In this document: piece by piece, positions 3,160-3,980 of the stretch
How positions within the stretch are numbered: the first letter of the stretch is position 1
Layout of the letters: every line of letters begins with the position of its first letter
Source: Chara braunii
Lineage: Eukaryota > Plantae > Charophyceae
NCBI GenBank assembly: GCA_003427395.1
Contig: BFEA01000047.1
Coordinates: forward strand, 493,289-557,288
Direction of reading: 5' to 3'
DNA: 64,000 nucleotides
The notes under the pieces: model-generated
What the model saw: only the letters and a program-made list of their open reading frames with translations
Told to the model about the DNA's origin: nothing
The model's database searches: none
Program-made: the position numbers and the translations under genes

Positions 3160-3980
3160 ATCGGGTTAGGTCATTCATCCTAGAAACAATTCCAACTTTT
3201 TGCCTTAGTTATACACGAACAGGCTGCACAACTACTTTTCTCTTCATTGGGCATATGACTAAGTCATTCGTCTTAAAGACAATGCTTAGTCGCCCTGATC
3301 TGTTTAAATAGTCAAGTTATATATACCTCTCTGAACTTAATCTTCAAAAGTGGGCGTAAGACTGAATCATTCATCTTAGAAACAATGCTCAGTCAGCACA
3401 AGTTACCTTCAATTATAGCTCTTAGTTATACTCTCTTGATTTGTGATATGGTTATAGTCAGACCATTCGTCTTAGAAACAATTTCTGGCTGACCTTGTTT
3501 TTATAAACATATAGACATATAATTATAGAAAGTCTTATTCCTTTGGTTACATTATAATCCTGTGGCCTCAGACTTGGACCATTCATCTTAGAAATAATAT
3601 CCAGTCTTTGGCCTGAACCTCCCTCAGAATAAAAAAATCAAAGAGTTGAGTCATTCGTCTTAGAAACAATGCGCAACCCCTTTTCTCAGCACAAAAAAAG
3701 CAGAGTACTCTGGGTCAAAACCCAAAGACTGTTCAGAAACCACCCAAAATAAACAGCGACCAAACCATTCATCTTAGAAATAATGTTTGGTCCTCAAAAT
3801 CTGCACAGTCAATACCTCAAAAAAACAATAACCAGACCATTCATCTTAGAAACAATGTCTGGTTAAATTGAATAAACATAGCGACCAAGCCATTCATCTT
3901 AGAAACAATGCTTGGTCCTTCAGAAAACAGAACAAAACACAGCAGTCAGACCATTTATCTTAGAAACAATGCCTGACCCT
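3160..3980. repeat. Array of 10 hairpins with a constant 20-nt core (cattcRtcttagaaacaatg) and variable self-complementary arms
   Basis: Cores start at 3172, 3265, 3368, 3464, 3580, 3652, 3766, 3838, 3891 and 3952. Example arms: gactaag/cttagtc, gaccaaa/tttggtc, aaccaga/tctggtt, gaccaag/cttggtc. Confidence 0.95.

Follow-up and report, generated by a model that had tools for sequence, protein, structure and literature searches.

The window analysed here, a 64,000-nt stretch of the Chara braunii genome, contains an array of ten hairpins in which a conserved loop and inner stem are carried on outer stems that differ from unit to unit and yet remain complementary, each with one bulged purine at a fixed position. 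The array lies within a high-copy, non-coding repeat. It is real and very likely under selection for structure, and our leading, though tentative, reading is that it forms a multivalent protein-docking signal, serving packaging or transport and export, in the minus-strand RNA of a probable retroelement.

The first-pass annotation, made from the letters alone, had described ten copies of a 20-nt core recurring every 53 to 116 nt. A pattern search recovered exactly ten matches on the plus strand at 3172-3971, with zero to two mismatches (mean of 0.02 and maximum of one in shuffled sequence), and the start-to-start steps agree with the spacing described, at 93, 103, 96, 116, 72, 114, 72, 53, and 61 nt. 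Each unit is 37 nt long, and the spacers between units measure 17-80 nt. Read on the minus strand, the bulged purine, one per hairpin, lies on the 3' side. The array and its units are as follows.

Hairpin array, 3163-3979, minus strand: ten units, each with a 6-7-bp variable outer stem, a 4-bp constant inner stem, and a 12-nt loop
Unit 1, 3163-3199, minus strand: decayed, with two core changes and an extra arm base; 38.3 bits with the covariance model
Unit 2, 3256-3292, minus strand
Unit 3, 3359-3395, minus strand: G·U adjoining the bulge on the minus strand
Unit 4, 3455-3491, minus strand
Unit 5, 3571-3607, minus strand: decayed
Unit 6, 3643-3679, minus strand: without a counterpart in the alignment with L002 and L004
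Unit 7, 3757-3793, minus strand
Unit 8, 3829-3865, minus strand
Unit 9, 3882-3918, minus strand: 54.5 bits with the covariance model
Unit 10, 3943-3979, minus strand

In units 1 and 5 the outer arm, as read from the sequence, contains one additional unpaired base. A scan of the whole 64-kb window with a covariance model of the unit gave no additional unit above 15 bits. Among units the arms are 45% identical and the core 89% identical.

Further copies of the array were found both in the window and outside it. An inverted second copy at the far end of the window has loop letters that differ from those of the first, and its three core-pattern matches (minus strand, 63856-64000) each show three mismatches. 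A search with a paired-core pattern gave no match in a viral contig collection, none in a genome contig collection, and four in a metagenome contig collection (L001-L004), of which L002 and L004 are further copies of the repeat with eight units each. L001 is a bacterial gene region and L003 an AT-rich coding repeat; neither is similar to the window, both score 11.5-20.9 bits, and they were set aside as chance matches; two isolated viral single-core matches, L005 and L006, were rejected since they are without outer stems (22.7-26.5 bits). The terminal 25-mer of the repeat was absent from the viral and genome contig collections, and Rfam gave no match over 2400-4700, either at the gathering score or at E values up to 10.

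Pairing was scored over 28 complete units from four copies, at six pairs per unit, with the cut unit at 63981 left out. Watson-Crick pairs occupy 142 of 168 arm positions when one unpaired base is allowed beside the core and 37 of 168 when it is not, and all 28 units keep the bulge, so the unpaired base noted earlier at a fixed position is borne out. In the window units alone, 51 of 60 arm pairs are Watson-Crick. Redealing the 3' arms among these units gave a mean of 28.6 and a maximum of 48, and none of 100,000 redealings reached 51; the corresponding frequencies were 0/100,000 for all units pooled, 10/100,000 for L004, and 22/100,000 for L002. Decay of a single ancestral palindrome, which the first-pass annotation had named as the result that would undo its interpretation, accounts poorly for these stems: neutral simulations on a star tree, decayed to the observed 45% arm identity and with repair outside the model, retained 26.5-30.0 of 60 pairs (maximum, 44), and 0 of 20,000 runs reached 51 in each of three settings. 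Changes on both sides were seen at 7 of 11 pairs, with 52 cells against 20.9 in shuffles, and slid registers paired 17-48% against 91% in the proper register; related rows inflate both sets of counts. The inner 4-bp stem is invariant and never covaries, so covariation gives no proof of it; the exact inner stem with its bulge appears in the minimum-energy folds of 7/28 single units as minus-strand RNA and 8/28 as plus-strand RNA. Between the window and L002 or L004 (units 1 to 5), the arms are 52-60% identical, the spacers 58-60%, and the cores 76%. Arms as diverged as spacers nevertheless keep about 85% of their pairing between copies, and this, with the bulge present in 28/28 units, argues for selection on a single-stranded structure, RNA or DNA, as had been proposed.

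The extent of the repeat was established from sequencing depth and from the second copy.

High-copy non-coding repeat holding the array, 1500-4505, no strand assigned: ends on the right near 4505 and on the left at 1500 or farther out
Best-conserved terminal block, 4240-4505, no strand assigned: over 4263-4511, 38-41 columns in every 50 match the second copy
Second copy, inverted, 63332-64000, plus strand (equivalent to minus of the first copy): 72% identical, two complete units and one cut unit

Depth was taken from contigs of two DNA runs of one sample. In run X1 the summed contig depth, which is not a copy number, is 4,913-217,143 per bin over 1500-4519 and 18-34 over 4520-5123; this drop, together with the divergence of the second copy right after 4505-4507, places the array in a high-copy repeat ending near 4505. 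A short high-copy island (5124-5274; X1 depth, 5,643) interrupts the low-copy flank and has a look-alike at 32526-32579. The low-copy flanks beyond the ends of the two copies share a 337-nt block, 60% identical and in the same orientation (6059-6387 and 62133-62460), at differing distances from the end, which suggests either a preferred target or a fast-evolving continuation of the element. Inside the repeat, 1480-1770 is strongly structured (z scores of -4.1 on the minus strand and -4.8 on the plus strand) and has no Rfam match.

In both copies the terminal block closes with TGG-NNN-CCA, the right end reading TG on the minus strand and CA on the plus strand. No target-site duplication with TG...CA ends was found, with the left end not located; the five bases after 4505 recur at 1552, away from any TG, and nearly all contig depth carries a different base at 1554. 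No iMet-type primer site was found, and the primer site of a neighboring Gypsy element, sought in the repeat, gave no match better than three mismatches in 12; the terminal 9-mers differ between copies, and the window has 0 tRNAs. Neither a partner long terminal repeat (LTR), nor split direct repeats, nor terminal repeats were seen in 1-7100. Pfam searches for gag, reverse transcriptase (RT), and recombinase gave no match either in the six frames of 380-2361 or in 21 frames examined across 230-6720; gag next to the array and a Rep domain near it were likewise absent from the results, and a decayed 218-residue candidate frame (431-1084, minus strand) had 0 matches in 1.84 billion proteins. The array-bearing repeat may be a non-autonomous or solo copy. 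As for DIRS, Ngaro, and PAT elements, the window copies, none of them full length, showed no recombinase, no inverted or split direct terminal repeats, and no target-site duplication. A Penelope-like element was considered and rejected: the accessible part of PMC8557442 describes such elements as an RT with GIY-YIG and pseudo-LTRs, with a hammerhead in some Chara families, and we found no hammerhead core in 1-7100, L002, or L004 and no resemblance to the Penelope-like copy (46-50 kb). The accessible parts of that paper, on Chara Penelope-like families, and of PMC7192593, on DIRS cDNA, make no mention of an array of this kind.

A retroelement is the likeliest class, judging from a second repeated hairpin that the repeat shares with the leader of the Gypsy neighbor.

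Second array, 2577-2880, no strand assigned: three repeats of about 123 nt with a hairpin module in each; 16-nt arm shared with the Gypsy leader

The 16-nt arm occurs three times at 2577-2838 and three times, on the same strand, in the Gypsy leader at 15017-15259; the window holds 7 matches against 0.08 expected. Module units number three in this copy of the repeat, four in L002, and six in L004. They lie 220-480 nt before an acceptor-like site in the repeat and 170-410 nt before 14847 in the leader of the minus-strand Gypsy element; the module also matches, more loosely, at 24315 and may be common to several repeats. The Gypsy element itself (8240-16950, minus strand) has a primer site at 16682 and a 2.1-kb leader with a donor-like site at 16520 and an acceptor-like site at 14847. 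Its Ty3/Gypsy pol occupies 8.2-11.1 kb on the minus strand, and no partner LTR was found near 7-8.4 kb. Of the proteins compared with the window integrase, two from Chara braunii are 78% and 84% identical to it, and those of land plants 40-49%.

The strand on which the array acts was judged from pairing, RNA reads, and splice-like sites.

Donor-like GT (4238-4237) and TATA-like hexamer (4218-4213), 4213-4238, minus strand: putative; both also in the second copy
Conserved 16-mer, 3067-3082, no strand assigned: perfect donor-like site on the plus strand, 6-bp hairpin with one G·U on the minus strand
Acceptor-like AG (2356-2355), 2355-2375, minus strand: also in L002; chosen by eye, failed a strict filter

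The placement of G·U pairs, the reads of one RNA run, and the module shared with the Gypsy leader weakly favor the minus strand. The pair beside the bulge is G·U on the minus strand in 8/28 units and on the plus strand in 2/28; the minus-strand cases in units 4 and 5 are common to L002 and L004, and both plus-strand cases are single-copy. RNAalifold gave the proposed fold on the minus strand (-9.62 kcal/mol) and a different, weaker fold on the plus strand (-8.43 kcal/mol). A strand rich in G and U folds better owing to its composition, and the folding z score favors the plus strand, at -5.6 against -3.3 on the minus strand. In RNA run X5, first mates on the plus strand outweigh those on the minus strand, with 47.2 against 1.43 at 4218-4368 and 0.56-1.57 against 0 in the bins of the array. 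This indicates minus-strand RNA, provided that the library is of the usual kind; X5 depth over the array is about 1, and most RNA reads are less than 95% alike and come from other copies. In the second RNA run, X6, reads fall on both strands, and in most bins between 1953 and 4217 first mates on the minus strand are the more numerous; plus-strand RNA is therefore present as well. The reads are oligo(dT) derived, and pile-ups of read starts or ends are not to be expected. Eight X5 reads have loose ends before 4237, which fit either a splice at the 4238 donor or a divergent subfamily, the latter since copy-to-copy identity drops there. The 16-mer at 3067 is kept in three copies and folds better on the minus strand in 3/3. 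Two layouts fit the minus strand. In one, a long LTR would start at 4505 and have its TATA-like site at 4218, and the transcript would take in the array soon after its start; in the other, the array would lie in an intron of a leader whose first exon is short. Either would put the array near the 5' end of the minus-strand RNA.

Action in plus-strand RNA we consider unlikely. An intron from the donor at 3068 to an acceptor-like AG (4062-4063) would then contain the hairpins, which would govern splicing or retention or would mask a start codon at the end of each core. The perfect donor-like site stands just ahead of unit 1 in three copies, plus-type X6 reads are in excess over much of the element, the plus-strand z score is the lower one, and on that strand the bulge pyrimidine is able to pair with the last G of the core in 25/28 units. 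The pair beside the bulge, however, would be A·C on the plus strand in the 8/28 units where it is G·U on the minus strand; the acceptor was chosen by eye and failed the strict filter, and no such joint occurs among the 15 of 406 read joints listed.

We also give a low probability to hairpins acting in single-stranded DNA, either the cDNA of a tyrosine-recombinase retroelement or a rolling-circle strand, where they would be repeated sites for an element-encoded enzyme. DIRS-1 cDNA is single-stranded according to the accessible part of PMC7192593, the search for a target-site duplication found none, and with DNA parameters the exact inner stem and bulge appear in 13/28 single-unit folds, compared with the 7/28 for minus-strand RNA. 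Against these points stand the domain searches, which gave neither recombinase nor Rep nearby, the split direct repeats absent from 1-7100, and the G·U bias, which would suit RNA.

The changes between copies bear on whether structural selection is needed at all, or whether the arms are restored to inverted repeats by template switching, in replication or in reverse transcription, and the cores are homogenized by conversion, an account that we regard as quite unlikely. Same-position units of the window and L004 were compared over 42 pair positions: 19 are unchanged, 11 are Watson-Crick double changes, six are single changes to G·U on the minus strand, three are single changes to G·U on the plus strand, and three are other double changes. 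The last unit, whose register may be off by one base, supplies five of the 11 double changes; without that unit the count is 6/36. The double changes are mostly double transitions, the loops are homogenized within a copy, and the neutral simulation left repair out, all of which would accommodate such repair. Repair would, however, erase the bulge, which every unit keeps, and the pair beside the bulge still shows non-Watson-Crick cells. L002 and L004, which are close to each other, differ at 9/48 positions, and 0/9 are Watson-Crick double changes, which also speaks against repair and indicates that recent decay is uncompensated. Among the 40 of 999 variants listed, 11 lie in the array: five restore the core consensus, one restores a stem pair, four are outside the core and stem, and the one at 3576 would break a pair unless its partner changes too.

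A double-stranded site, in which the 20-nt core would bind a transcription factor or an antisilencing protein and the array would serve a terminal repeat as enhancer or insulator, is likewise quite unlikely. It would suit the constant core and variable spacing, as well as the TATA-like hexamer, 230 nt from the array on the minus strand in both window copies, but it leaves unexplained why arms that differ from unit to unit keep their complementarity around a fixed bulge. That the units form a CRISPR-like array, cut at each hairpin into small RNAs, is hardly credible: the resemblance on which the first-pass annotation called it "CRISPR-looking" is a superficial one of short conserved units recurring between unlike spacers, and every CRISPR membership feature examined came out otherwise, the host being a eukaryotic high-copy repeat, the repeats not near-identical since their stems vary by unit, and the spacers uneven, inherited by position, and, being homologous between copies, not unique. 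No cas family was found among 76 frames, and no Rfam CRISPR repeat in the array; the sole Rfam CRISPR match (17.2 bits against a cutoff of 39) lies outside it. Scans of the array for bacterial promoters and terminators gave 0 and 0.

In the docking reading that we prefer, the array would fold in minus-strand RNA near the 5' end of a retroelement transcript and would display one and the same loop and bulged purine, ten times over, to a protein, probably the element's own Gag-type or export partner. Docking would mark the full-length RNA for packaging or transport, and repetition of the hairpin would give avidity. Weighing against it are the strands of the X6 reads, the donor-like site at 3068 and the z score on the plus strand, the register of the last unit, and the searches for gag, RT, LTR, and target-site duplication, which found none.

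In the MS2 and PP7 coat-protein operators and the iron-responsive elements, a protein reads a loop of specific sequence, carried on a stem that is free in sequence and has one bulged base. The array likewise has a sequence-free stem, one fixed bulge, and a conserved loop, and thus looks like a protein-binding RNA hairpin; it differs in carrying a 12-nt loop on a 4-bp upper stem and in having no Rfam match. The accessible part of PMC12789967 allows two comparisons. Like retroviral and LTR-retroelement Psi, the array would be a structured non-coding RNA near the likely 5' end and a proposed Gag target; unlike Psi, it spreads ten copies of a 12-nt loop with a bulged purine across 800 nt, its loop is not rich in G, and no gag, primer site, or LTR pair was found beside it. 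The constitutive transport element (CTE) of simple retroviruses, described there as a cis-acting RNA that lets unspliced RNA exit the nucleus, would fit an array between donor-like and acceptor-like sites, but the CTE is near the 3' end and is not among the Rfam matches. With the alphavirus packaging signal, as given in the accessible part of PMC6283419, the array shares the use of one short motif on several stem-loops as a multivalent signal, and it differs in being non-coding, in its long conserved loop and fixed bulge, and in lying in an algal genomic repeat. The open-access literature covered on Chara braunii retroelements and on retrotransposon hairpin and packaging signals, which takes in neither the Chara genome paper nor its repeat library, does not describe the array; within that scope, the array would be an undescribed variant of the multihairpin cis signals of mobile elements.

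The most surprising and testable feature of the array is a concerted switch of its loops. Loops of the window copy are 0.86 identical to one another, and those inside L002 and L004 0.78-0.82; between copies loop identity is 0.67-0.68 for same-position units and 0.66-0.67 for other positions. Arms and flanks, by the same comparison, are 0.53-0.56 identical at the same position and 0.36-0.40 otherwise; seven position pairs from two subfamilies were used, the last pair matching poorly (0.17). Loops therefore group by copy and stems by position, so three loop letters changed jointly across all units of a lineage. Such a change could come from selection for a lineage-specific partner, to whose protein the loops would be tuned, or from conversion confined to the cores; two subfamilies are too few to tell these apart. 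More speculatively, and with the odds well against it, the loop may be a lineage identity code, in which each subfamily rewrites the three variable letters in all of its hairpins, keeps its position-specific stems, and has its own protein pick its own RNA; arrays of same-loop hairpins would then be a general, undescribed design of retroelement self-recognition. How LTR-type and other plant and algal retroelements pick their own RNA is poorly mapped. Should loops set specificity, the array would be a natural counterpart of engineered multihairpin tags and would explain how related subfamilies avoid cross-packaging; the 37-nt unit, which occurs naturally with variant stems and three types of loop, is ready test material. 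Kissing-loop dimerization was rejected as a general mechanism, given that good self-pairing is limited to the loop type with a 6-nt palindrome (-8.8 to -9.2, against -1.0 to -4.1 for the common types), which is found in 6/29 units and is no family trait of the window copy.

Elsewhere in the window, weak RT and GIY-YIG matches lie at 46.4-49.3 kb. Hammerhead-like cores were found by pattern at 45123 (plus strand) and 58690 (minus strand), neither reported by Rfam at the gathering score; the former falls within inverted repeats flanking the Penelope-like RT and GIY-YIG region. Two U6 snRNA fragments, below the gathering score, lie at 204-265 and 305-361 (minus strand) next to a poly(A)-like run, and a large-subunit rRNA fragment (61124-61255; 73.6 bits) lies in the flank of the second copy. 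Two long tandem arrays occupy 17150-18940 and 20315-22005, with units of about 150-170 nt and 46-54 nt.
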